Positions 2,679 through 55,236 of a stretch of DNA of 64,000 nt are shown here, piece by piece; positions within the stretch are counted from its first letter, which is position 1; every line of letters begins with the position of its first letter. The DNA is from Elsinoe ampelina (lineage: Eukaryota), in contig ML992506.1 in NCBI GenBank assembly GCA_010093995.1, positions 568,551-632,550 on the forward strand, in the 5' to 3' direction. The translations under genes were made by a program, and so were the position numbers. The notes beneath the pieces were generated by a model that was given only the letters and a program-made list of their open reading frames with translations, was not told the origin of the DNA and did no database searches.

Positions 2679-3922
2679 CTACTGAATCATCGGATCGGCT
2701 CTGCCTAGACCTGCATCTCCTTTACCGCCGCCGACCTTCCTTCCTCCCTCGGCGCGCTTGACTCTGCACCACAATCCGACCTGCTCGTCCCGGATGAATT
2801 GCCAGATCACGCCAACCCAGCTCTTATGGCATGGGAGGTCATCATAGAACTCGTGTGCAATCCTGTTCAGCTCCGGGAGTCTGGTCCAGGGAATGGCAGG
2901 AAAGTCATGGTGTTCGTTATGCAGACCCACGTTGTAGGTTAGGTAATTCAGCGGTCCATAGTAGCTGAATGTCTCTGGCACTGGGACGCTCTTCAACGCC
3001 TCTTTTGTCGAGCTGTTCGCCTTGCGGACTTGCTCGGTATACTTCCTTTCGATCCCGTCCCGGTCGAAAACGTAGTGTTCGGCGATGAAGTGTCCAGCAC
3101 AGGGGTGAAGACTGCCAGCGAGGAATGAGGAGAAGATGAAGTACTTGATCGTTTGTGCGCCAAAACTCTTATACATGACAAAGTCGAAGATAAGCTGGGT
3201 GGCCAGATTGAGCGCGGAGATGTTCGTGAAAGGTACCTGGTAGACGAACATGGGTCGGAGGGCGTAGAACAGAATCTGGAAGGTGCAGAAGAAGGATTTG
3301 CCTGCTACGCTGTCGAGGAAGACTGCTTCAAAGGCTGTCGGGAGATCTGTGTCCAACCCATCTACGCCCAAGCTCTTGTGGTGCGTCAAATGATATGGTC
3401 GGAACGACGCAGAGTATGGAATGCCGATAGGCAGGTTGGCGAAGATGGCAAACAGTCGGTTGAGTTGGCCAGACTTGAAGGCAAGGTTATGAGAGATCTC
3501 ATGGATGGCCAGGAAGAGGTTCTGGTTCGCGGTCGCTCCAATGATGTAGGCTGTCAAAAAGAACCGTAGAGAGAAGAAGGGTGTTGACTGTAGCAGATAT
3601 GCGCAGAGGACCTGGAGTGAGACGACACCGATCACGACTGGAATGGTGAGGGGTTCTGGGCCGCAGAGCTTGAGTACCTGGAATTGTAAGTCTGATATTA
3701 CCAGATGCCCAAGCAAACACATTGACACACCTCGGGATGTGCCTTTATTATGGCCTGTCGCCGCGTCCTGTGTGGCTCCTCTGTATACGTCCAAAAGAAA
3801 TCCTCCTGCTCTTTGCCAGACTTGTGCGATATGGTAGTGGCTTCAGGGGCAACATCCTCTGTCAATCGTATGATTGGCGTAGATCGAGTCTCCGTCGCGG
3901 TGATGGTCATCGAAGGCGCCAT
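2679..3922 (-). CDS. DES1: Sphingolipid (dihydroceramide) delta-4 desaturase
   Basis: N-terminal FFWTYTEEPHRTRRQAIIKAHPEV; His boxes HEISH, HLTHH and HNEHH; intron 3678-3730. Confidence 0.95.
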
Positions 3923-4680
3923 TGTTTCTTGAGAGTTGAAGTCAGAAGAGAGCGGGATCAAGGTCTTTGTACGCGCTTTGATGAGGCGACATTTGGCGGA
4001 ACGGCCTGGAGTCTTGAGAGACTTGCGCTTGCTCCACAAATTTCGCCGGAGCTGTCAACGTGCAGCCAGGGTCCTAAGCCATTGACCAATCAAAAGGCTT
4101 TCACTAGACCCCTGACAAGCGGGGATAGCCGAGTACCAATCCAGCTTCTATACAAGTAGATCATTTGCACCTGAAGGTGTTCTACCTCTACTACTATTCC
4201 ACTGATTCAATTGCATGCGACTACGCAGTTCACGTCTCTTCGGCTGAATGGCAAGGATAAGTTCTATTGGACACATCATATATCTGCAGAGGTCCGAGAC
4301 GACGTGATTTTGATCTGATGGCGATTTTATTCAAGCACGATCGTAGTTGAGATTGCAGACGATAATGTCAACTGGGTGCGCTGAGTCTTTAGCAGTGCTG
4401 ACACGGATCTGTGTTCCTTTCTGGCGGATCGGCTTGCATCTGGACGCAAATCACGAGCCAGTTGTGAAATGCCATCGGATTTATGGTGCTTTGAGCTCGT
4501 CAAGGGAGACCCGAGCATCAAGGCCATGAAGTTTTGCGCCTCCTGCCACAATAATGAGATGATCAGGCCGATTGAGACCACTTCCAGATTTCCGACCGTA
4601 TCACACACAAATGCCATGGTTTCCTCAACCTCAATCTACCAGGAGAATTTATGTTCAGATACAGCATAGTAGTCAATCAA

Positions 4681-5448
4681 TCATGCACTACTGCCTGGCA
4701 CACCCGCCTTCCACCTCCACCGCGCCCCTGAAGTATCCGGCTCTAACCACCGACCCATCCTCTCCTCGCCCTCCCACACGAACACAGGAATTCGAAACGG
4801 CTCATCCCCATCAGGATCAACAACCATATCCTCCCCAAGCCTTGAAAATCCCCCCTTCTCATAGAATCCCGTCGCCTCAAGATTCGACTCCAAGTACACA
4901 GGCAGGTCCTCCTTCAAAGCCAGCTCCTTGCCCCAATCAATCATCATCCTCCCCACCCCCTTCGACTGCTTCTTCGGATCAACCACAATCATATGCAACC
5001 GAACACAAGGCGGATGAGCCATCTGATCCTGCCCAAGAAACGCAGCCATGAACCCATCCAGGAATGCGTAATCAGTTGCTCCGTCAGAGACGTATCGTCC
5101 GTACAGCTTCTCCACCCCTATCAGTTTCCGCTCGACCCAATCCGTCCATGAGCTCTCGCTGACCCAGCGCTTGTACAGTGGCGTGTCCGAGCCTTCGACC
5201 GTCCAGCATGAGAGGCCTAGGATCTCGCTTGTGGAAGTATCTTCCACGACCATACTTCGTAGATTTGGAGTGGCGAAGCGCTCGCGGATGATGTTCAGAC
5301 GCCAGAGGTAGTAGCTGCCAGGATGGGTGTCTCGACCGGGGGATATGCGTCTGTGAAGAGCTGATTGAGCGTTTGCTGCGTTCCCCAAGTGGGCGAGTCT
5401 CGATATATCTGATCGCCGCGCGGGGCGGAGGTTGAGGTTGGAAGTCAT
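4681..5448 (-). CDS. GNAT-family N-acetyltransferase
   Basis: Starts MTSNLNLRPARRSD; acetyl-CoA motif VDPKKQSKGVGRMMI, then PVYLES and FYEKGGF; single exon. Confidence 0.88.
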   Translation of the reverse strand: MTSNLNLRPARRSDISRLAHLGNAANAQSALHRRISPGRDTHPGSYYLWRLNIIRERFATPNLRSMVVEDTSTSEILGLSCWTVEGSDTPLYKRWVSESSWTDWVERKLIGVEKLYGRYVSDGATDYAFLDGFMAAFLGQDQMAHPPCVRLHMIVVDPKKQSKGVGRMMIDWGKELALKEDLPVYLESNLEATGFYEKGGFSRLGEDMVVDPDGDEPFRIPVFVWEGEERMGRWLEPDTSGARWRWKAGVPGSSA

Positions 5449-5909
5449 TGCTATCGTCCTATTGGTGATAGCACCTGGAACGGTTGACAATGGAAGCAGT
5501 TTGTTTGACAAAGAATCACAAGTCTCTCCTGACCCACAACAGTAGTCTCTGATGCCTCTCTTTACATTCCTGCCTTGCGAGCGGTGTCCGGAAAGAGATG
5601 CAACCGAAGTAAATCAGTTTGACCCCGCAAGGCGTCCAATGAGTTCCTCCATGCTCGATTTTCCGGTGGTACATGCACATCGCTACGACACATGACACTT
5701 GGGCAGATACGAGACTATTCATCCAAAAGTATCCCATTCATCTCTATCAAAGAGACATCAAGGAGCTATTTCTCACTTAAATTTCACATGACCCGAAGCC
5801 CGTCATCGACATCCCAACAGTTGGTATTGCCTCCGACGTAGTCCCCTTCGATGCAGCAAGAAGAGAATCCCCAGTCCCATCCCCACAAGTTCATCAACCA
5901 TGAAACCCT

Positions 5910-7858
5910 CTACTGAGCCGGCGCAGGAGCAGGAGCAGCAGCATCAGCCCCCTTGACAATAGCAGCGACCTTTTGCGCAGCAGCACCAGTCTGGCTACCG
6001 TAGCTTGTGTGGCCACCAGATCCACTTGTCTGGCCCCGCCCGGCGCACAGAGCATCAGCGCTGCCGCAAACCTGGACGACTTTGCTGTTGTCGACGCCGC
6101 GGAAAGCCTGGCCGTTGAGTGGGTCTCCGAATGTGGCGACGGCCGCGACTTTCGAGCCGTCCACGCCTCCCTGGAGCGCCGCGTGGACCACCATTGCACC
6201 CTGAGAATAGCCGGAAAGAACGAGGTTGGTGTCTGGACATTTCTGGAGAGCCTGGTTGGCGAGTTGGACCATCTTATCTGCACCGGCGCCGCGGCCCATC
6301 TGAGAAGTTTGTTAGCTTTCATTCCTGCGCTCGTGGAGATATTCGAAGCATACCTGAGCATTGCCAGCGGCTGAAGCGGCGTAGTCGACGCCCTGGACAG
6401 CGACATCGCCTCCGAGACTCTGACGGAGAGAGTTAGATAGACCGGGGCCAACGACGAACCCCATAGTGGCCGGTTCGCCGGTTCCACGAGCGAAAATGAG
6501 GGTGGTGCCCTTGCACTCGCCGCTGACGACATCGTTGCTAGAGCCGCCGCCACCAGCACCTCCACCGAGGAAACCACCACCTGGTAGATGTTAATTACTG
6601 CATCTGGTAGTACTGATGTGCGGCGGTTGCGGGAAAGGGCAGGACAAGCACAGAGCCCGGTTCCGATAGCATGTGCCAAAGGAGACCTTGCAAACGTCGA
6701 GAGCTCGCAAGATCAACCTCAGCGACTGCTTTCATTCGTGATGTGAAGAGGGAAGTAATGAAGAAGGGATCGTACCAGCTCCGCCCAAAAAATCTCCGAG
6801 GCCTCCACCGCCACTTCCGCTGCCAGCACCTGGAAGAGAGCCACCACCTGAAGGGATGTGTTAGCATTCGTTTGTGTTCGATAGTGGTCCCAGAGCTTGC
6901 GGTGGTGCAGGAGATGGACGATGCGTATGGCCCAAGAGCCACAGACTCCAAGAGTCCGCATAGGAACCGTCTCTTGCTTTGAGTTGCCACATTGACACGT
7001 CCTACCAGGGACTTCGCGTCACAAGGTAAGAAGGAGTAGGTAACTTACTCGACCCGAGACCAGGTAGACTTCCTCCAGCGCCACCACCCAGGGAAGGCAA
7101 TCCGCCACCTGCACACGTGTAAATCTTCATATTCAATCAAGAATTGAATAAGACTTACCAGATCCTCCCCCCAATCCAGGAAATGATGATCCCCCAGAGC
7201 CAAACCCTCCTGTTGGAAGCGAAGGGAAGCTGCCACTGCCACTCCCCTTGCCAAGCCTGTCCAAAAGTGCACCCAGATCAAATCCGGATGCGGAACCCCC
7301 TCCAAGCCCAGATCCCAGCCCAGCTCCCCCTGAACCACCACCCAACGACCCGAGGCCTCCACCACCCAGCGAGCCGAGCCCACCAAATTGAGCATCAGCC
7401 TCAGCATCCCTCGCCTTCAGGGCCGGAGCTGCATCATCTCCCCCTTCGGCCCCCTCACGCTCCCTCAACCTCTCCAACAAACGGTTCAACAACTCCTCGA
7501 TCCCCCCGACACCAGAATCCCCCTCACCACCAGCCCCAGGGACAGGCGGAAACACCCCGGTCGGCACCGGCATGGGCTTAGACGGCCTACCTGGACGACC
7601 GGTAGGACGACCAGGGTTGCTCGTCGGACGGCCAGGACGAGGGCGAGAAGGACGTCCAGTCCCGATGGGGAAGGGAAGGGCGCCGCCTTCGCCTTGGCCG
7701 GGACGGGGAAGGGTGGGGGTCGGGATGGTGGCGCCTGCTTCGCCGTCGGAGCCGCCTGCGCCGGGGAGGTTGATGAGGTCGTCCTGGCGCTTTTCGACGG
7801 GGGCGGAGTGGGCGAGGGCCGCGAGGAGGGCGAGGAGGGTTGGAGTTGTGAACTTCAT
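5910..7858 (-). CDS. Secreted cutinase (CE5) with long Pro/Gly-rich N-terminal extension; 5 exons, ~482 aa
   Basis: Signal peptide MKFTTPTLLALLAALAHS; exons 7858-7159, 7108-7049, 6847-6776, 6580-6354 and 6299-5910 splice in frame; cutinase motifs CKGTTLIFARGTGE, GYSQG, TFGDP, CGSADALC and GHTSY. Confidence 0.85.
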
Positions 7859-9591
7859 GATGGCTGGTGGTGGATGTGATGTTGAACGGGGAAAGTGGGT
7901 GGGTGAACGAATGAATGTTCGACCAAGATCCTGCTTGGCGAAAGAAGAAAGAAGAGGTAGGGGCAAAAGAAGGACTGTGGATGAACGTGAAAGGCGAGTG
8001 GAGGTCTGAGAGAAGGAGAGGCTTATATCTACTCGCCTGGTGTGGCGTTTGTGCACGCCATCGGATGCATCAAGCGGGGACGGCTAGATTGGCAAGGCAC
8101 AACAGCTCATGCCGGTTTCCAAACAAGTCCATCTATCCTCGACGAGCGCCAACGAGCATGGTGATACGGATGCATCCCGGAGGGAGCAGAGTTGGTGGGC
8201 GGACGGGACCCTGGAGTGTTTCGAGAGGTGCAGAAATGCAGGTACACTGGCAGTTGGCGGTCGGATGCCAAGAGGCAGCATTGATGCTTGATCCAGACGA
8301 CCGGGGTTGCGTAATGTGACAGACAGGGCGAGATGTACCTTTTCCGAAGAAAAGTTCCGAGGCCATTGCTGTTTGACAGAAGCAAAAGAGATCAGGGGTA
8401 AGGACCGTGAGGCGGTGGGAGGTGGTCGGGTGCGGAACTAGGCCGTTTTTGGAAGCTTGGTAGTAAGAGTGAAACTCTGTGACGGCGGTGGTGCGGCTCT
8501 CTCTTCGACCGCATTTGCGTATCGAAAAATGAAATAGGCAGCCTGCAGTGGTTTCAGCGTCGTTTCACGGCAGCTACTTGCGATTTTGCCTCGGTTTGTC
8601 GACCACGGAACCTGCGCGATCTGGGTTCCCAGCACCCCGTCTGTCTTCGTACTGCGGTACAGAGGGGGATCTCATGCGCCGTGGCGCTGATCCGAAGTAT
8701 CATGCACAAGGCTAGCGGTCATGATGCTGGCGGCGCTGTCAGAGCTCCCTGTAGTCTTGCCGTTGTGGGTGGTATCGTCCAACAAGGTCCATCGCAATGA
8801 CGATTCAGCTGTGGATACTGAACGATCAGATGGATCTCTGCTCGACCCACAGCTGACTTGTTTGTCGTTCGCCCTGGCAATTTTACTTCCATCGTCCGAG
8901 ATCCGAGGCGATTAGGTGCGGATCGTGGTCATGGATCTCACGGGTTGAGAGTCATTGCGAATAGGCCTTGTTGACTTTGACAGGTAGGGTAACAATGTGA
9001 TGGCCAAGTTTGACAGGGTAGGTTTGGAAGACCACAAGCATGTTCCTCTGGCGGGATGGAAGGCGAAGAGGTGGCCGCTTGCAGCAATCGCACAGCGGCC
9101 AAATCGTACCTGCATCGATCGCCAGGAACAGCTTCGTGTATCGCGACCGCGAACCAATGAGCAGGCCAATACTTGTTCGATATTGCAACATGCTCACATT
9201 TCCCAACAAGTTACTGCGCCGAAGAGCCCGCGTGATGGCTGATTCCAACCACATAGACAGCCACCTTCTGCCGTCTTGCCTCGGCACATCCTACACAGAA
9301 AACGCCATACCAAGCCTTCTGAGACGATCATGCATCCCACCCTGCGGCGCCCCCCGCGGGAGTGCAGCAACTCTATTCGACGATCATCTATTTGAGGCTG
9401 AAGCTGCATAGAGGTATCCACACATCAACGCACTCTTCTGCATAAGACAGCGATTCTACCGGATATTTGCTTTTGTTGCATAAACATAACCACATGTAGC
9501 AATGGGAGATTGAAGTCCCTCCATTTGACGACTTGATACCCACTTCCTCCTCGGACTTCAGCGTTCATATCCTGGTCCGCTGCAAAGGCGA

Positions 9592-44523: not shown

Positions 44524-44976
44524 GGCCAGAGAAGGAGCGCAACATGCCCTGGGCTTGACTTGGATGCGATGTCTGGTGCTGCAAGACGATTATGAAAGCA
44601 TTGCTTCAGAAACTACTTTTCGTGCGGCGGCGATTGGATGTTCCGTCCAAGTGTAAGATTCCCTGTGAATTCCAGTGCTTCCTTTTAATTCCAGTGACGC
44701 CGAATATAATGTGGCGAGTCGGCCGCACGAATACAGTCGTTTTGAGTTCAACCGAGCCACCCCGGGCTTGGCGGTACTCTTCACCGACTTCTGCTCACCA
44801 AAATTGGCTAGCTAGAGGTCTAGAGAGAATATAGAGTCGAATAGCTTAACAACGCTGTCTATTTGAATAAAATTGAAGCTAAAAAAAGGTGTAATAGACT
44901 AGTTAGTATATACTAACGTTACTAAATTATAGCTTATAAGTGTTCTTCTTCTATAACTAACTATTGCTCTAGCTAT

Positions 44977-45821
44977 NNNNNNNNNNNNNNNNNNNNNNNN
45001 NNNNNNNNNNNNNNNNNNNNNNNNNNNNNNNNNNNNNNNNNNNNNNNNNNNNNNNNNNNNNNNNNNNNNNNNNNNNNNNNNNNNNNNNNNNNNNNNNNNN
45101 NNNNNNNNNNNNNNNNNNNNNNNNNNNNNNNNNNNNNNNNNNNNNNNNNNNNNNNNNNNNNNNNNNNNNNNNNNNNNNNNNNNNNNNNNNNNNNNNNNNN
45201 NNNNNNNNNNNNNNNNNNNNNNNNNNNNNNNNNNNNNNNNNNNNNNNNNNNNNNNNNNNNNNNNNNNNNNNNNNNNNNNNNNNNNNNNNNNNNNNNNNNN
45301 NNNNNNNNNNNNNNNNNNNNNNNNNNNNNNNNNNNNNNNNNNNNNNNNNNNNNNNNNNNNNNNNNNNNNNNNNNNNNNNNNNNNNNNNNNNNNNNNNNNN
45401 NNNNNNNNNNNNNNNNNNNNNNNNNNNNNNNNNNNNNNNNNNNNNNNNNNNNNNNNNNNNNNNNNNNNNNNNNNNNNNNNNNNNNNNNNNNNNNNNNNNN
45501 NNNNNNNNNNNNNNNNNNNNNNNNNNNNNNNNNNNNNNNNNNNNNNNNNNNNNNNNNNNNNNNNNNNNNNNNNNNNNNNNNNNNNNNNNNNNNNNNNNNN
45601 NNNNNNNNNNNNNNNNNNNNNNNNNNNNNNNNNNNNNNNNNNNNNNNNNNNNNNNNNNNNNNNNNNNNNNNNNNNNNNNNNNNNNNNNNNNNNNNNNNNN
45701 NNNNNNNNNNNNNNNNNNNNNNNNNNNNNNNNNNNNNNNNNNNNNNNNNNNNNNNNNNNNNNNNNNNNNNNNNNNNNNNNNNNNNNNNNNNNNNNNNNNN
45801 NNNNNNNNNNNNNNNNNNNNN
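44977..45821. other. Assembly gap (N run)
   Basis: 845 N. Confidence 1.
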
Positions 45822-47030
45822 TTCTAAGCTCTTTAATAGGTCTACTACTACTACCTTTATAGTAATCCTCCCTTAGATCGACGCTAGTAAGGATAGTATA
45901 GACTCTAGTAGCTAGTGTAATACTACTATCTTTATAGATAGTATAGCTAGCACTACTATTGTAAGGTTAAGGCTTAGTAACAAGCTAATTACATAGTACG
46001 CTCGAGGGCATAAATAGCAATAAGAAGCCTCTATTAGAGTTAGTATAGACTTATACTAATTATAATTACTATAACTATAAGAGGTTATACTAGCGTATAT
46101 TAACTAGTAAGTACTACCGGATTATAATAGAGAATAAGTATACCTAGGCTACTACTATTTACGATAGTAAAGCTACTATTAATTGTCCTCCTATAGGCCT
46201 TATATTAAGTCTTAATTGCTTAAAGGCCTCGAGGAGTGTTAAAAGCGCTCTACTAACACTACTAATACTAATGCCTTTAGCGTCTTTAGTGCCTTTTATA
46301 CTCTCTCTAACACCTATTAACTATATTAATATTATAAACTTAATTGCTTCTTACTAGCTATAGTAGCGCTTAGAGCCTATAAACGACTTAAGATTCTTAT
46401 CTATTACCTCTAAGGCTAACCCTTATAAAGTTTTAACTAAATTCTTTAAGTAGATAAAGAGAAAGAGAAGCTTTAAAAGAGATATTTAGGTACTAGATTA
46501 GGTTAAATTTAAGCTAAAGAAGGAGAATTATAATCTTAATAGTATAAGAGATATACGCTTAGATAGGTAGAGAGATATCTAGGCCTTTAATAAAGGCCTT
46601 CTATACCGGATTTAAAGCTAAATTAGCCCTTTTAAGCGCTAGTATTACTCTAAGATAGTTATACGAGCTAGATTAAATTAAGCAAGTTAGATACCTTACT
46701 ATCTTAGTAGTCGAAATAGGCACTTTTATCTAGTTTATAGTAGCTAATATAGATACTAATTTACGTAGCGTAATAGACAATTTAACTAGCTTAGTAGCTA
46801 AGATAGATATTAATCTAGTTCGGCTGCCGAACTAGACTTAGTTTATCTAACTCGGAGTAGTATATATATAGTATAGAGTAGTTATAGTAGTAGTAAAGAG
46901 TTTTTACTAGGTCTTAGTATTAAACTTATTTAATATAAGTAATTTCTTACGTACTAAATAGATTCCCTATAACCTTACGCTATATCTATAGCTCTTAAAG
47001 TACGCTTTAGCGTATAGTCTACTATATAAG

Positions 47031-47453
47031 TGTCACGAACTGTCTAAACTAAGGTTATATAAGTAAGTCTTAGGTCGAGCTAAGAATAATATATTCTACT
47101 TCTATAGTAGTATAGCACTAAGGTAAGAGTTAGAGAAGGTATGTCTTATAGATAATAAAGTATAATTAGATAGTATTATAAAGGCTAGCCTTAGTAATAC
47201 TAGTGTTTACTATCTAGACGAGGTTAACTATAGTACTTATAGAAGGTAAGGACTACTTTCTATATACTATATACTCTTAGGCACATAGGTTTAGTAGTGT
47301 TAGAGCACTAGTAGGGAGACTACTATCCCGTAAATACTATAAACTACTTTCTGTTTAGGACAGATTACGTGACTTGTCTGTTTCTATCTTAGCGTAGGGC
47401 TAATTAGTTATTTGTAACCTATTCCGTAGGTCCTCTAAGAGACCTTTATAACA
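47031..47453 (-). repeat. 3' LTR (423 bp, TG..CA) with adjacent polypurine tract
   Basis: Begins TGTCACG and ends TATAACA; followed by CTATTCCTCTTCT, which reads AGAAGAGGAATAG (PPT) on the minus strand. Confidence 0.85.
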
Positions 47454-47548
47454 CTATTCCTCTTCTAGCTAGAGTTGTCTTTAACGTTTATAACTGCGCT
47501 ACTCCCTAGGTTATTTTTCTTTCTTTTCTTTTTAGGCTATAGCTAACT

Positions 47549-48133
47549 ATAGATAGCTTTTGTGTTAATAAGAAGAACAAGAGCTAGAAACCTTCTCGAT
47601 TCTAGAAGTAGCGTTATATTAATATAGCTAACGCTCTATCAATACCTAAGAACATTGTAATAGTTATATATACGAACTATCTAGAGTTTAGTATAGTGTG
47701 TTATTTTAATCGTAAGTAGTTAGTAAAGTGTGCCGAATATTAGAGAAACAATCGAAAGTATAATAGCACTTTTTCGTTAGAGAAATATCGCTAGGTAGGC
47801 GAGTAAAAGAAGGTAGTTAAGGCGAAGAGCCTTTAAAAACAAAAGGAGATAGCTCGGTTAAAAAGGAATCTTATTATAGTATAGTAGGCTCTAGCTAAAG
47901 CCGAGGTAGAGAACTTGTCTCTATAGGAGGATATAGTAAAGTTAGATAAGAAGTTAAATCGAATACTTCGCTAGGAAATAGAGGCGTTAGGCGTATTTAA
48001 TGCTATACCTCCTAATAAGGAGATTTCCTTAGGTAACTCTAACTTCGTTCTAGAGAGGATACTAATAGTCTAAATAGTTAATTAGCCTACGATAGGTTTT
48101 TAGTCTAATAGTCTAGAATTACTTACGAGGTAA
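47549..48133 (+). pseudogene. RIP-mutated antisense ORF in the retrotransposon: Zn2Cys6-like domain plus coiled coil
   Basis: One frame has TAT/TGT codons at 47669, 47678, 47699, 47729, 47738 and 47759 (C-x2-C-x6-C-x9-C-x2-C-x6-C after TAT>TGT reversion), followed by a K/E/L/A-rich heptad-like segment. Confidence 0.7.
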
Positions 48134-51100
48134 GGTATTTCTCTAGTTCCTATATAGCTTTACTATACTAATGTCCTTTCTAGTGGATTAAATAATAGTA
48201 CTTCCCTTTTATAATTTTATATCTTAAAACTCTTTTAATCTTATATCGTAGTTACTATATCTCTTCGTCTAGTTCGATAGGCCCTAGTATAGTATTTTAT
48301 AGTGCTTTTTCGAGTAGTAATATATAAAAGACTAGGTGTATCCTTATATATATTAGTAGTTCTAGTTTATATACGTTTTTGTTTTTCTTTTCGAGGATTC
48401 TAAAGGGTCCTAGTTTAGTGTAGTTAAGTTTCTTACTTAGTCTTTTCGTTTTAATGTTTCTACTAAGGAGATAAACCTTTTCCCCCTTATATAGAATTAG
48501 TCTCGTAATTCTCTTACTATTAGCGAATTTTACTATTCGTTTTAAGATAAATATTATATCTTAATATAATTAATTATATAGCTTCTTAATGTCTGTAACT
48601 AGTATATTAGCGTCTTCCGATATAGGTTTTATCTCTAAGGTGTTCTAGTGCAAATCTAGATATATGCTATAATTAGCAAAAAATAGTAATACTCTATTTG
48701 CCGATTTTCTGTTATTAATAGTAAGTTCTATAAGCGGTAGTAGCGATGCCTATAAATCTTATTCGTAGTTAAGGTAACATTGGAGGTATTATTCTAGTAC
48801 TTAATTTGCTTATTCTATTTGCCTGTCCGTTTATAGGTGGAATAATATTAATAATTTATACTTAATTCCTAGTAGGTCTATAAATAATTACTAGAATTAT
48901 AATATAAAGAGCTTATCTCTATTAGTAATTATATCTCGGGGTACTCTATGTCTAGAAACAATTATCCGGAGGAAGGCGAAGGCTATATTCTCGACTATAG
49001 CTATTGTCTTATATAGTATAAAGTAATAGTACTTTATAAATCTGTCTACTAGGACTAGAATACTATTGTACGTTACGCCTATAAGGGGCTCTTCTAAGAG
49101 TAGTAGTAGTCCTATAAAGTCTATCGTAACTAATTACTATAGTTTATCTAGTAGTAGCAATAGCTGTAATAAGCTATATAGCTTATACCGGGCGTGTTTA
49201 GACTTATAGTAAGTATCGTAAGCGGCGATATATTTCTTAATATTGTTTCGGAGTTCTTTCTATAGGTAATTTTATATAATAAGTTCGATAGTCTTATTAA
49301 TCCCGCTATAGCCCGTAGTAGAGTTATTATAGTATATTCGAATAACTTTCTATTTCTGTTCTTACGTAAGCTCCTAGGTAAGGCTATATAACTACTTTAC
49401 CTTCGGGTGCTTATAGACTAAAGCGCTATTCTACTACTTTAGTATAGAGGCCTCTATTATTGTTATATTCTTTAAGTAATCCGGTCTTTAGCTAAGAGCA
49501 TCTACTCCGCTATTCTCTAATCCCTTAATATAGTAGATCTAGAAGTTGTAACTTATAAGCGTTTCTAACTATCGTACCTATCGTCTATTAAGAACCTTAG
49601 TTATTGTCTAATATAGTAGGTTCTTATAGTCCGTATAGACTTATATAGGTAATGTTATTCCTTCTAGATATACGCGCTACTCGTAGAATACTTCTATAAT
49701 TGTAAGTAATTCCTTATCGTATATGTCGTAGTTAAGTTTAGGTCTAGTTATCTTTCTTAAGTAATATACAATTAGGCAGCGTCGTTCTTCTATGTCTTTC
49801 TACGCTAGATACGCTTCTATTACAAAGTCCGAGGTATTCGTTTCTAGTAGTGCTTATTAGTCTAGGTCGAAAAGTGCTAAAATAGGTACTATAGTCAGCT
49901 AATACTAGAGCTTCTTAAAGGCCTATTTACACTTATCGTCGAAGACAAAGCTAGTTTCCTTCTTTATAAGGTTAGATATTAGCGCTACTACTTTAGAGAA
50001 TCCTTTAATAAACTTACGATAGTAGTTAAAGAAACCTAGTAGTGCTTAAACCTCCTTAACTGTAGTAGGTTCTAGCTAGTCGTTAACGGATTTAATCTTC
50101 TTTAGATTAGGTCTAATACTATTAGTAGATATAATATAGCCTAGAAATTGTATCTTATGTTTGTAAAACTCGCACTTAAAGAGCTTTACTAGTAGGTCTT
50201 TCTCTTTTAGCTTCTATAGCACTTTACGAACATGTCCTATATGTTTGTTATATATCTTTAAGAAGATTATAATGTTGTCTAAGTAAGCCGAGATAAAGTT
50301 ATCGAGGTATTCTCTTAGAGTGTTATTAATTAATTCTTAGAAGAATACTAGCGCGTTAGTTAAACTAAAGAGTATAACGAGGTACTTATAGAGACTCTAT
50401 CTTGTCCTAAAGGCTATTTTCTATTCCTTACTGTCCTTTATCTATATTCGATAGTAGGCGTCTCTAATGTCAATTACGGTGAACTATTTAGCTCTAATAA
50501 GTCGATCCTAAAGCTTATTAATCCTCGGGAGAGAATAATAATTCTTCCTAGTAATTACATTAAGTTTCTAGTAATTAATACATAGTTATAGCAATCTATT
50601 CTTCTTAGGTGCGAAAAGCACTCTATACGCAATTAGTGATTTTAATAGTTGTATAAATCCTTTATGTAAGTGCTAGTCGATATAGGTTTTAAGGAAGTTC
50701 TCTTTCTTCTTCGATAGTAGTATAAGACCTTAATAGTGTATTAGGGATTTACCTTCTTCGAAAGGTATTTCGTAATTCTATAGTTTATATTAGAGTAGGG
50801 CCGCGATGCCTTTCTGTTCTTTAAACAAGTCCTCGAAGTCTTTATATTCCGGCGGAAGTGCTTAGTCACTTACGCTAGCGATAGCTCTAACTATTAGTCG
50901 TACCTATACTGTCCTTATAGTTAGTATCTATAGAGCTAATTATGCTCCCTTCGTCCTATAATTATACTTAGGGAATTCGAGTGTTTCTTTAATCTAGTCT
51001 ACTTCTAGATTGTGTTATTAAAGCTAGTTTATGCCGAGTACTATATCGTACTATATGTCTATAATGTCGATTGATTATTTCTCTATATATGTTCTAATAG

Positions 51101-53365
51101 TAATTAAAACGTTTCTTAATTCCTATATAACTCGCTCGTCCTTTTCTATAGGGGTTCTATCTACTATAGTAAGTAGGTAAGGTGACTCCTTTTGTCGTTA
51201 ATAGAGCTTTAGCTAATTAGCTACTATCGTAGAAATATAGCTATAGTTAGCCCCTAAATCTATTATTGCTCTTACCTTATACATGTATATTTTTGCTTCT
51301 AGAATAAAGTAATTTAACGTGTAAACTTTCATTATACTTAGGCTTTAAGTAGCGTCGTTAGTCTATCTATCTAGCTAACAATAAGCTAGTTTTTTGTTAT
51401 TACTAAGCCCTATACAAGGAACTAGTCTCTCCCTACGCGTACCTATTACTTATAGTAAACCTACTAGGCTATTCTTGTTTTATTTATATTAGTGAGATTA
51501 AGGTACACTACTAGGCCTACGCCCTAGTGTCCGTGAATCTCTAGAATTCCCTATTAGTCGCACTAGGTGTTATTATATATACGTACTAAAATAACTATTC
51601 CTTCTTAGTCTAGTCGCTCCCTAGTATCGAAGGAGAAAGCAAGTTCCGTGTTGTATATAGATCCTAATCGGTACTAGTAATAAGTGTAAATTATTATATA
51701 GTTTCTTTATATTTCTATAAGGTAGGCTTTAATTCGTTCGCCCTAAGGTGGTACTTTCTCTCCCTTAGAGAAATTCTAGTCTAAGTTGTTATATTAAAGT
51801 TATTCTTTATTTCTTTCGCTATACTCCTCGTTGTCGTCGCTGCCGCCGGCGTAGTAGCAGTTAGTAAGGCTATACTAAGTGTATTTACGTACTTAGCTAT
51901 ATAGGATTTCTTCGCCTATCCTAATAACCGTAAAGTCCGTTATAGCTTCTAGGCTAATAGTGTCTTCCCCTAGTACATTATATAAATAGATAGTGTAGTA
52001 CTACTTACACTCTAGGTTTATACATTTCTAAAGTAATACGTAATAGACTCTTTCTTTTAGTTTACTATAAGGGCTAAAGATAAGAGAACTATATTGTCGC
52101 GTAGTACTCGAGTCCTAGTAGCGTATTTCGATAATCGAGTATTAATTGTTGTTACTAATTACCCTCTAGAGTCGATTATAACTTATGTTAATAGTGATCT
52201 TATCTAGGTTAAGTCCTACTTATATAAGATATCTTTGTCTCCTATACGAAGTTAGCTTTCTTAGAAACTATTCTAAGCTCTACTTATCGGCTAAGTAAAT
52301 AGGACAAGTAGAGTTATAATAAGCTATCTATAATAGAGTATTATATAGCTCTTCTCGTTGTATCTTAATCGTGGAAGCGCTAGGCATAGTGCGTCGAGGA
52401 AGTATATCTATCTCCTAGATCGTCGTAGATCCCTTCTATGTTTCTATACCTACGTCGTTAATCGTTAGGTCTTCTATAGTAGTATCGGCCTTTTTCTCTA
52501 CTAGCCCGGCTATTATTATATGTAATCTATCGGCTAGAGCCCTCTATTAGTATTCCCTAGCTCGATGTCTAGGTCTTTTACACTTAAAACATAGATTCTC
52601 TCGTCTATACTTCTCTCTCTCTTTTCTACTAAGGAACTTTCCTCTATAGCTATAGCCTTATACCTATAAGAGGTAGCCTTCGCGTATAGCGTTAAGTTCT
52701 ATAGAGTCTCTATAATTGCGGTTACTACGTTAGAAGCGAGTATTAGCCTTATAGCCTTCTCGCTTCTCTATTCTTCTTTCGTATAACCTATTATCGATCT
52801 TAATTAACTTATCGATAAGCTCCTTAAGTTCGGCTAGGGGTCCGTCTAACATTGTATCCTTAATAGAGTTACCGAGTCCTTCGTAGAAGACTAAGGCCTT
52901 AGTACTATCGTCCTAGTCTAGGTGTTAAGTAAGCTACTAGAACTACGAATAGTACTAGGCTATAGAGCCTTATTACTTAAGCTATCGAATCTTAGTTACT
53001 ACTACTTTTTCTTTATCGGAGATGTTAAAGATTTGCTTAATTCTCTTTTTAAATTCTATATAGCTACTAAAGATCTATTTAGTCTCTTTCTCGGGAGTGT
53101 CGGATAGGTAGTCGCCTATATAGAGTTTAAACTATATAAATACGTTGCCTCGAAGGCGAGATATAGCATAGGTTACCCTAGATATATTACTTAGGTACAT
53201 ATCGGGTTATAGTTTAAATAGGAAGCTAAGCTAGATAAGGAAGCGTTTAAGCTAAGAGTAGTCTCTATAGAAGAGTTCTACCTTATTATACTTGCCTCTT
53301 CCTAGCTTGTTCCTCGAGTAGAAACGTTAATAACGTTCTTCTACTTAAGACCTAGTATTAGACAT
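48120..53365 (-). pseudogene. gag-pol remnant
   Basis: RT reads E*KIAFRTR*SLYKYLVILFSLTNAL..YLDNIIIF, a RIP image of EWKTAFRTR.GLYEYLVMPFGLTNAP..YLDD; RNase H NYDIYDKELL; protease RAIIDLGAN from RAMIDSGAN. Confidence 0.92.
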
Positions 53366-53481
53366 ATCGTTAATAGTAAGTCTTTCTAGCTTACTAGTAA
53401 TTAAGGATATTAAGAGTAACTTAGAGCAAGAGTTACTTATAAACCTCGTAGCGTGCTATACTATAGTAAGGGTAGTTAAAA

Positions 53482-53662
53482 TGTTATAAACTATCTAAAC
53501 TAAGGTTATATAAGTAAGTCTTAGATTAAGCTAAGAACGATATGTTTTACTTCTATAGTAGTATAGTACTAAGGTAAGAGTTAGAGAAGATATGTCTTAT
53601 AGATAATAAAGTATAATTAGATAGTATTATAAAGGCTAGCCTTAGTAATACTAGTGTTCGCT
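53482..53662 (-). repeat. 5' LTR (partial, truncated by gap)
   Basis: Matches 47031-47211 with 15 of 181 differences, all C/T or G/A transitions. Confidence 0.95.
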
Positions 53663-54477
53663 NNNNNNNNNNNNNNNNNNNNNNNNNNNNNNNNNNNNNN
53701 NNNNNNNNNNNNNNNNNNNNNNNNNNNNNNNNNNNNNNNNNNNNNNNNNNNNNNNNNNNNNNNNNNNNNNNNNNNNNNNNNNNNNNNNNNNNNNNNNNNN
53801 NNNNNNNNNNNNNNNNNNNNNNNNNNNNNNNNNNNNNNNNNNNNNNNNNNNNNNNNNNNNNNNNNNNNNNNNNNNNNNNNNNNNNNNNNNNNNNNNNNNN
53901 NNNNNNNNNNNNNNNNNNNNNNNNNNNNNNNNNNNNNNNNNNNNNNNNNNNNNNNNNNNNNNNNNNNNNNNNNNNNNNNNNNNNNNNNNNNNNNNNNNNN
54001 NNNNNNNNNNNNNNNNNNNNNNNNNNNNNNNNNNNNNNNNNNNNNNNNNNNNNNNNNNNNNNNNNNNNNNNNNNNNNNNNNNNNNNNNNNNNNNNNNNNN
54101 NNNNNNNNNNNNNNNNNNNNNNNNNNNNNNNNNNNNNNNNNNNNNNNNNNNNNNNNNNNNNNNNNNNNNNNNNNNNNNNNNNNNNNNNNNNNNNNNNNNN
54201 NNNNNNNNNNNNNNNNNNNNNNNNNNNNNNNNNNNNNNNNNNNNNNNNNNNNNNNNNNNNNNNNNNNNNNNNNNNNNNNNNNNNNNNNNNNNNNNNNNNN
54301 NNNNNNNNNNNNNNNNNNNNNNNNNNNNNNNNNNNNNNNNNNNNNNNNNNNNNNNNNNNNNNNNNNNNNNNNNNNNNNNNNNNNNNNNNNNNNNNNNNNN
54401 NNNNNNNNNNNNNNNNNNNNNNNNNNNNNNNNNNNNNNNNNNNNNNNNNNNNNNNNNNNNNNNNNNNNNNNNNNNNN
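53663..54477. other. Assembly gap (N run)
   Basis: 815 N. Confidence 1.
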
Positions 54478-55236
54478 TAGTAGAGATATTATTTAGGTAG
54501 GCTATTACCTCCTTAGATAGGTTAGTATAGAAAGAGCTTAGCTATAAAGGACTTATATCTTCTAAGAAAGAGATAAGAGTATAAGGGTATAGTATATAAG
54601 CTTTAATAGAAGAATAAGAAGTGCTAAAGAACTTAAGAGATAGTTAAATTTAGTAGATTATAGCTCTAGCTACCTTAGTAGTAGTATAAATAGCATAATT
54701 AGTATACTCTTTAGTAAGTAAGAACTATATGTCTATTAGTTTTAATTTAGCTATCTAATAATTAACTATAATAGTAATAACCTAATTAGAGTAGTATAGC
54801 GACTATTACACCTTTTTTTAGCTTTAATTTATTAGTATTCTCTATAGACTTCTAGCTAGCTAAATTTGATAACGAGAGGTCGACGCGGAGTACAACACGC
54901 CAAGCCCGGGGTGGCTCGGTTGAACTCAAAACGACTGTAGCGCCGCATAGAAAATCTAGCAAGCTCTTGACGAAGTGCTCAAAATGCCAAGCTAGAACTT
55001 CATTTCTGCTATAGTGGTCCGTGCGGCGTTCTTTACTCCACTCTATGAGCAAGACCGAGCTCCTCTCCTCTCACATTTACACGATAACACCCCATTCGAA
55101 ATCTGCTGCTTGATCAGGCTAGACCACCGTCGCGTGGTATCTAGGAGACACGCGGGTCAATACGCGACAATTCTGCCTCGTCTCGCTATCTCCCGACCCG
55201 ACTTCACACCGGCGATGAAGTGAAGCTTCCACAGTC

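Follow-up and report, generated by a model that had tools for sequence, protein, structure and literature searches.

An inactivated antisense gene with a Zn2Cys6-like domain and a predicted coiled coil beside the 3' long terminal repeat of a fungal Ty3/gypsy retrotransposon

Does a degraded retrotransposon of Elsinoe ampelina carry, on the strand opposite to gag and pol, a further gene hidden by mutation? This question is raised by a stretch of 64,000 nucleotides (nt) of contig ML992506.1 (GenBank assembly GCA_010093995.1, positions 568,551 to 632,550 of the forward strand), hereafter the window, in which a Ty3/gypsy element lies on the minus strand and has been degraded by repeat-induced point mutation (RIP). 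The initial annotation had placed a hidden gene on the plus strand at 47549-48133, numbered as in the window, between pol and the 3' long terminal repeat (LTR), and had described its product as a six-cysteine, Zn2Cys6-like domain followed by a coiled coil and an acidic tail. We find that this open reading frame (ORF) is almost certainly a real gene of the element, dead in this copy, and that the structural parts of the proposal hold, with a qualification for the Zn2Cys6 identity.

Translation of the plus strand confirmed a frame of 195 codons at 47549-48133, interrupted by 16 stops (12 TAG and 4 TAA, no TGA). The first codon, at 47549, is ATA and stands on the Met1 column of the homolog alignment, in agreement with the ATG to ATA change that had been suggested. 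Of the six codons on Cys columns, TAT is found at four (47669, 47678, 47738 and 47759) and TGT at two (47699 and 47729); the four columns at which the window has Tyr are Cys in 16/17, 17/17, 17/17 and 16/17 homologs, and the spacing obtained by reverting TAT to TGT, C-x2-C-x6-C-x9-C-x2-C-x6-C, is exactly that of the homologs. The stops align to Q, W or R columns, as for example the TAG at 48083, which is on a column occupied by Trp in 13 of 17 homologs. The window copy is dead: its start codon and four of its six cysteines are lost, and its frame is broken by the 16 stops.

The homology evidence came from a phmmer search in which the window translation, with stops written as X, was compared with 1.84 billion representative proteins. 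Results showed 46 matches at E<=1e-3, including 26 at E<=1e-10, and the best of them (E 9.7e-24) covered query residues 8-167. The relatives are small ascomycete proteins of about 170-230 amino acids (aa), a family length with which the approximately 195 codons of the window agree. With the intact protein of a related locus (L001, described below) as query, 86 clusters matched at E<=1e-3 among 176 candidates, and the profile of a 74-sequence alignment (A3) matched 101 clusters at E<=0.01 among 8000 scored candidates. Alignment A3 consists of the L001 protein and 73 of about 130 fetched family proteins, full-length sequences being chosen and fragments excluded. Cys occupies the six positions in 71-74 of its 74 members, with the spacing given above, and the cysteines together with G75, F77, R137 and G143 stand out as invariant across sequences that share only 36-75% identity.

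The family is spread over several ascomycete classes and has no Pfam model. All named matches are labelled 'hypothetical protein' or automatically, none has a precomputed Pfam domain, and their sources are Exophiala mesophila, Knufia obscura, Cladophialophora yegresii, Fonsecaea pedrosoi, Exophiala sp., Aureobasidium melanogenum and a metagenome-assembled genome of Circinaria calcarea. The automatic labels read 'Zn(2)-C6 fungal-type domain-containing' for Exophiala mesophila (UniRef) and 'B box-type' for Knufia obscura. A distant relative was found in Corynascus similis (E 1.8e-7), and in the ESM Atlas it appears as ascomycete clusters, unnamed and with 62-122 members each, which we treat as a lead only. 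The search for longer or fused forms gave a single match among 728 longer candidates, an Aureobasidium protein with an unrelated N-terminal extension that is likely a mis-prediction, and a scan of viral contigs gave 21 pattern matches and zero relatives. Four database proteins (P0007, P0008, P0011 and P0012) have Tyr at Cys columns together with other RIP-type changes; these are gene calls on RIP-damaged copies that are still open by chance.

Do the relatives also sit in gypsy elements? A scan of one metagenome with a 7-sequence alignment gave four related loci, L001 to L004. L001 is an apparently intact element in which the ORF (3414-3986, plus strand, 190 aa) converges on an intact pol (3847-7185, minus strand, 1112 aa, with protease, RVT_1, RNase H, integrase, SH3_Tf2-1 and Chromo, the last at E 9.4e-15) and overlaps it by 140 nt, while gag (7242-8828, minus strand) lies upstream of pol. 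A minus-strand purine run at 3383-3399 precedes the ATG of the L001 ORF by 14 nt; in the window, where the order is LTR and purine tract, ORF on the plus strand and pol on the minus strand, the corresponding gap is 15 nt. Antisense pol also follows the ORF in L002, L003, L004 and the window (tblastn), that is in 5/5 cases including L001. The less-mutated relatives have Cys at all six codons in a continuous ORF, and adjoin gypsy pol in 4/4 fetched loci; the checks by which the initial annotation could have been refuted thus turned out in its favour.

Identity to L001, for the ORF and for pol respectively, is 37% and 45% in the window, 51% and 51% in L002, 49% and 50% in L003, and 59% and 48% in L004. 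As ORF identity tracks pol identity, these values fit co-inheritance and not repeated capture. L002 to L004 are RIP-affected sister copies, each with Ile at Met1 and with Tyr at differing Cys columns (C43 in L002, C46 and C53 in L003, C63 in L004), and constitute an independent case of the Cys-to-Tyr decay seen in the window. Positions 1-6900 of L003 comprise a degraded element copy and, next to it, genes for a PAF (platelet-activating factor) acetylhydrolase, a GH76 protein and an aldo/keto reductase; these are ordinary fungal genes and confirm a fungal chromosomal setting.

The ORF is not a shadow of a gene on the sense strand. Of the 573 nt that it spans in L001, 433 do not overlap pol, and there each minus frame has 2-3 stops and a low-complexity reading; the plus frame has 0 stops, and its GC at codon positions 1/2/3 is 0.62/0.42/0.65. 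In the remaining 140 nt of L001 (3847-3986), the acidic tail of the ORF stands opposite the basic, disordered tail that follows the chromodomain of pol. Many family members share an ending in P-G before the stop, for which the double coding constraint may be the reason. In sum, the gene is real, conserved, linked to the element, and located antisense between pol and the 3' LTR.

What kind of protein does it encode? An AlphaFold2 model of the L001 homolog, built from the alignment, reached a predicted local distance difference test score (pLDDT) of 81.4 over the whole protein, with a short helix at 21-32, two short helices within the Cys domain, a single long helix at 79-141 and a tail of low confidence. 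The Cys domain modelled alone (70 aa) gave a pLDDT of 83.8 and a predicted template modelling score of 0.69. The long helix is predicted to begin 6 residues past Cys6, where the initial annotation had expected a coiled coil. Moreover, the distance between G75 and R137 is 62+7n in 73 of 74 members (62, 69, 76, 83, 90 or 104, with 101 as the exception); in the window copy this spacer is 69, a 7-residue insertion with respect to L001. The predicted coiled coil is supported by this variation of length in heptad steps. Over the 74 members, mean net charge is +4.0 at the N-terminus and -8.1 in the tail, over about 45 residues, consistent with the acidic tail that had been expected after the coiled coil.

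Several results bring the Cys domain close to the Zn2Cys6 class. The spacing of the family agrees with that of Zn_clus (C-x2-C-x6-C-x5-12-C-x2-C-x6-8-C), and Zn_clus is the Pfam family with the most member matches (26 of 74 at E<=1, best E 0.0019). When both models were submitted to Foldseek, ranks 1-17 for the full protein and ranks 1-22 for the domain were, among the matches listed, all Zn2Cys6 DNA-binding domains (E 0.24-6, none at E<=0.001), including Pho7, Leu3, Gal4, Put3, Hap1, Ppr1, AlcR and 1cld. In addition, the segment between Cys5 and Cys6, L-R-H-Q-R, has a mean net charge of +2.0 over the 74 members. Gal4-type domains carry DNA-contacting Lys or Arg between Cys2 and Cys3, and basic contact residues of this type are absent from that segment in the family.

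The following points count against the reading of an element gene with a Zn2Cys6-like product. In Pfam, 10 of 18 homologs scored 12.1-17.7 bits with Zn_clus, and neither these nor any of the 74 members reached the gathering threshold of 21; the family profile found zero Zn2Cys6 proteins among PDB sequences, only coiled-coil noise at E>=0.14, and the search with the A3 profile returned no canonical Zn2Cys6 factor among its matches. The segment between Cys2 and Cys3 is of the type V-N-H-G-V-V, and its net charge averages -0.04 over the 74 members. As to the gene itself, the RIP stretches of the window, translated in six frames, contain a relaxed Cys/Tyr spacing pattern twice, one of the two being an all-Tyr chance match at 46805 on the minus strand, and Tyr makes up 7-9% of every frame in this RIP DNA. 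The Cys/Tyr spacing by itself is no proof of a gene, and any TAA or TAG stop can be 'reverted' under the RIP rule. As to its place, all four context loci come from a single metagenome, and linkage is therefore shown for just two organisms; in the genome to which the window belongs, no more than two contigs span the ORF region at >=80% likeness, an observation that is ambiguous.

Considering both sides, the models make a Zn2Cys6-type fold probable, and 'Zn2Cys6-like' describes the domain correctly: its spacing and predicted fold agree with the class, its Pfam scores and its Cys2-Cys3 segment do not. A canonical Zn2Cys6 gene was sought in the window as a control, and none is present there.

The window ORF is the RIP-dead copy of an accessory gene of an ascomycete Ty3/gypsy chromodomain lineage. 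As for its role, the explanation that we favour, with an even or slightly better chance of being correct, is that the protein is a zinc-binding dimeric nuclear regulator. Intact copies encode about 190-220 aa, arranged as a basic N-terminus, the six-Cys domain, a predicted heptad-stepped coiled coil, an RE(M)xALGV motif and an acidic tail. Their mRNA would start within the 3' LTR, at an antisense promoter, considering the gap of just some 15 nt between purine tract and start codon. The protein would bind two zinc ions and dimerise via the coiled coil; the basic N-terminus may provide nuclear entry and the acidic tail an effector surface. It could act as a miniature Gal4-type factor on the element's own transcription or on host genes, and any recognition of DNA would have to differ from that of Gal4, as no DNA-contacting basic residues lie between Cys2 and Cys3. 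The parts of this explanation do not deserve equal trust. The protein may be a transcription regulator, with chances that we put just short of even, and the transcription factor or anti-silencing protein driven from the 3' LTR that the initial annotation had inferred is made plausible by the architecture and by a start codon about 15 nt from the tract. A miniature Gal4-type factor proper, dimeric through a coiled coil tuned in whole heptads, binding DNA otherwise than host Zn2Cys6 factors do because its basic residues are in the second half of the cluster and not the first, and activating the LTR or host genes by its acidic tail, is a tentative suggestion that we hold with less trust.

Among the other explanations, the one that survives best retains the Zn2Cys6-type fold and the coiled coil and makes the protein an accessory factor that binds proteins without binding DNA, for example as an adaptor in nuclear import, in integration-site choice together with the chromodomain integrase, or in the block of host silencing. 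The segment between Cys2 and Cys3, neutral and hydrophobic where the canonical basic DNA contacts would be, suits such a role, as do Zn_clus scores below threshold in every tested member and the RE(M)xALGV motif and D-W tail, without counterpart in any family found; moreover, the accessible text of PMC7264820 reports no antisense additional ORF (aORF) of LTR retrotransposons with an established function. The basic Cys5-Cys6 segment (+2) and N-terminus (+4) do not favour it, known activators are built in the same order, with a cluster, a coiled coil and then an acidic tail, and no result points to a binding partner. We consider this adaptor role unlikely, and prefer the zinc-binding dimeric regulator.

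An improbable proposal is that the antisense transcript matters and not the protein, through double-stranded RNA formed with the genomic RNA or through small-RNA regulation, with an ORF that is incidental or weakly selected. Such a transcript would fully complement the 3' end of the genomic RNA, and a transcript role for antisense aORFs is raised in the accessible part of PMC7264820, but the invariant residues, the conserved ORF length, the indels of whole heptads in 73 of 74 members and the high-pLDDT models all speak of strong constraint at the level of the protein.

The copies in the window's own genome bear on a further proposal, according to which a fragment of a host Zn2Cys6 gene was captured once by this copy (transduction). 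The stretch is represented in two DNA data sets of one study and in none of three runs presumed to be RNA; this carries no information on expression, a RIP-dead copy being expected to give none. In DNA contigs from the same species as the window, summed depth is 1e4-3e5 over the LTR and over many bins of pol, and only about 520-940 over 47336-48007. The two contigs over the ORF at >=80% likeness, one identical and the other with 36 differences in 327 nt, contrast with this very deep LTR and pol, as a single capture would predict. This low depth means either that the abundant copies have no similar ORF or that their ORF segment is below the 80% likeness bar. The latter is plausible, since the segment was originally GC-richer (56% in the intact L001 ORF and 48% in its pol) and would have lost more identity through RIP. 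The idea that the ORF is a rare variant, drawn from the low depth, was set aside as unproven, since the depth is explained equally well if a segment richer in GC lost more to RIP, and the same applies to the contrast invoked for transduction. Against capture stand also the same place beside pol in the elements of another organism (4/4 loci), a divergence that tracks pol, and the lack of any longer host protein with the module among the 728 longer candidates, bar the one likely mis-prediction. We regard transduction as very improbable. Differing places amount to 181 overall, of which 169 are transitions. In the DNA contigs of run X1 over 47000-49500, LTR and pol positions that are T or A in the window are often C or G (47163 is T>C in most of the depth), which indicates that the genome also holds many less-mutated relatives of the element.

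Finally, that there is no gene at all, only a chance pattern in Tyr-rich RIP DNA or a shadow ORF opposite conserved sense coding, has a negligible probability, as a stop density (16/195) close to the RIP background of 9.5-11%, a relaxed pattern that occurs twice and a window copy in which Pfam recognises nothing at E<=10 are set against E values down to 9.7e-24, full-length intact homologs and the 433 of 573 nt of the L001 ORF outside pol.

The element that carries the gene lies in an AT-rich island at about 44.8-54.9 kb of the window (GC 0.29-0.36), flanked by gene regions of 50-60% GC, and its coordinates are collected in Table 1. The RIP indices TA/AT and (CA+TG)/(AC+GT) are 1.85 and 0.27 in the element; where the window is rich in genes they are 0.55 and 1.30. 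In minus frame 0, Pfam recognised RVT_1 (2.2e-16), RT_RNaseH_2 (9.6e-17), RT_RNaseH (1.2e-15) and SH3_Tf2-1 (4.9e-10), all above cutoff, and Integrase_H2C2 just below it (23.4 vs 25.5 bits). The pol of L001 aligned with that of the window at 45% identity over 1043 aa (tblastn, 51311-48186), a chromodomain-like motif was judged by eye at the end of pol, near 48087, and minus frame 1 of the gag region contains the CCHC knuckle CFKCKRPRHRAREY. A direct repeat, 47028-47207 and 53479-53658 with 92-94% identity, marks the LTRs; this repeat and the Pfam domains on the minus strand confirm that the antisense frame points away from the 3' LTR and converges on pol. The element is a Ty3/gypsy chromodomain retrotransposon by the reverse transcriptase, RNase H, SH3 and LTR repeat found in the window and by the full set of domains in L001.

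Two runs of N interrupt the island, 44977-45821 (845 bases) and 53664-54477 (814 bases). As most of the 5' LTR is concealed by the second run, LTR length, target-site duplication and LTR divergence are unmeasurable. The gypsy element is embedded in further RIP-like AT-rich DNA at 44800-44976, 45822-47030 and 54478-54870; the flank 45822-47027 showed no Pfam family in six frames and no similarity to the gag or pol of L001.

Table 1. Positions of the antisense gene, its predicted parts and the surrounding element in the window
Feature	Position	Strand	Basis or remark
RIP-inactivated antisense accessory gene	47549-48133	+	Translation, phmmer, full-length alignment to homologs
Six-Cys cluster	47669-47761	+	C-x2-C-x6-C-x9-C-x2-C-x6-C; window residues Y,Y,C,C,Y,Y
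Coiled-coil segment (predicted)	47777-47986	+	Ends in the conserved RE(M/I)xALGV motif
Acidic/hydrophobic tail with conserved D-W	48002-48130	+	Overlaps the pol 3' end on the opposite strand
3' LTR	47031-47513	-	Lower edge is TG at 47031; upper edge inferred, adjoining the polypurine tract
Polypurine-tract-like run	47514-47533	-	Minus strand A/G only, read from the sequence
pol (protease, reverse transcriptase, RNase H, integrase, SH3, chromodomain-like end)	48087-52463	-	Pfam and tblastn; RIP-degraded
pol, SH3_Tf2-1	48303-48485	-	
pol, Integrase_H2C2	49194-49361	-	Under cutoff
pol, RNase H	49548-49940	-	
pol, RVT_1	50130-50603	-	
gag with CCHC knuckle	52469-53311	-	tblastn with L001 gag, 34% identity over 297 aa; RIP-degraded
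Visible part of 5' LTR	53479-53663	-	Interrupted by N run 53664-54477

How does this gene compare with known systems? With the Gal4-type factors (PF00172; Gal4, Lac9, Pho7, Leu3, Put3, Ppr1, Hap1 and AlcR) the family shares the six-Cys spacing and the predicted fold, a second half, K-C-A-E-C-L-R-H-Q-R-x-C, that is basic like the canonical half-site, a coiled coil right after the cluster and an acidic C-terminus. It differs from them in remaining below the Pfam threshold and in having no basic residues between Cys2 and Cys3, in its size of about 190 aa without the Fungal_trans middle domain, and in being encoded by a retrotransposon rather than at a host locus.

HBZ, of human T-cell leukemia virus type 1 (HTLV-1), is a basic leucine zipper (bZIP) protein. 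HTLV-1 has an antisense promoter in its 3' LTR, according to the accessible part of PMC7264820. The likeness to HBZ is an analogy of layout only, and a predicted one on the fungal side: an antisense gene of a retroelement, expressed from the 3' LTR, for a small dimerising protein resembling a transcription factor. The DNA-binding fold is unrelated, bZIP and not zinc cluster, and the HTLV-1 element is a vertebrate retrovirus. If the tentative suggestion of a miniature Gal4-type factor is true, the gene would be to a fungal retrotransposon what HBZ or Tax is to a retrovirus, and new host regulators might arise from it.

Among fungal elements, the nearest parallel is brtn of the Boty-like retrotransposons, which was reportedly treated by Zhao et al. 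2011 (Virology 417:248). Among the named family matches, which make up only about 1/4 of all matches, none bears the name Botrytis or BRTN. The gene brtn is described, in the available portions of four sources, as an extra antisense gene of the Botrytis cinerea Boty-like (BcGypsy1) elements, between pol and the 3' LTR (PMC8365987, PMC4227169, PMC5987419, PMC7264820). Both are thus extra genes of fungal chromodomain gypsy elements, antisense between pol and the 3' LTR; those portions report no domain in BRTN. For certain elements of fungi, the accessible text of Novikova et al. 2010 (PMC2864245) also mentions an 'add. ORF with unknown function'.

In plants, antisense aORFs between pol and the 3' LTR are known from Grande (gene23), RIRE2, Retand and PvRetro13; the part of PMC7264820 available describes them as without clear similarity to other proteins and suspected of a regulatory nuclear role, and for Grande it gives transcription from a promoter directly upstream of the aORF. 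The gene described here equals them in position and orientation. The placement typical of the class aORF-3R, within the element and opposite in strand, with pol on one side and the 3' LTR on the other, is found in the window and in L001 to L004; across copies the ORF is present in 4/4 related loci of the one metagenome and, in the window's genome, in two contigs at >=80% likeness. The difference from the plant aORFs is that this family is fungal and has a recognisable six-Cys cluster, a predicted coiled coil and an acidic tail; no relation in sequence was expected or found between them.

Antisense extra genes in LTR retrotransposons of plants and Botrytis were therefore known already, to the extent that the accessible texts document them, and the accessible part of PMC7264820 credits none of them with a recognisable domain or an assigned function. 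Literature searches on extra or antisense ORFs in gypsy elements of fungi turned up no Zn2Cys6-like retrotransposon gene. What is new is that an antisense gene of an LTR retrotransposon is seen for the first time with a recognisable architecture like that of a transcription factor and with a wide, unnamed family. Reading the DNA with RIP in mind (TAT from TGT, TAG or TAA from CAG, TGG or CAA, and ATA from ATG) recovers genes that ORF finders and Pfam miss, and the heptad-quantised variation of length offers an unusually clean natural experiment on coiled-coil spacing. Beside brtn and the plant aORFs, it is this layout resembling a transcription factor that makes the role of antisense retrotransposon genes directly testable.

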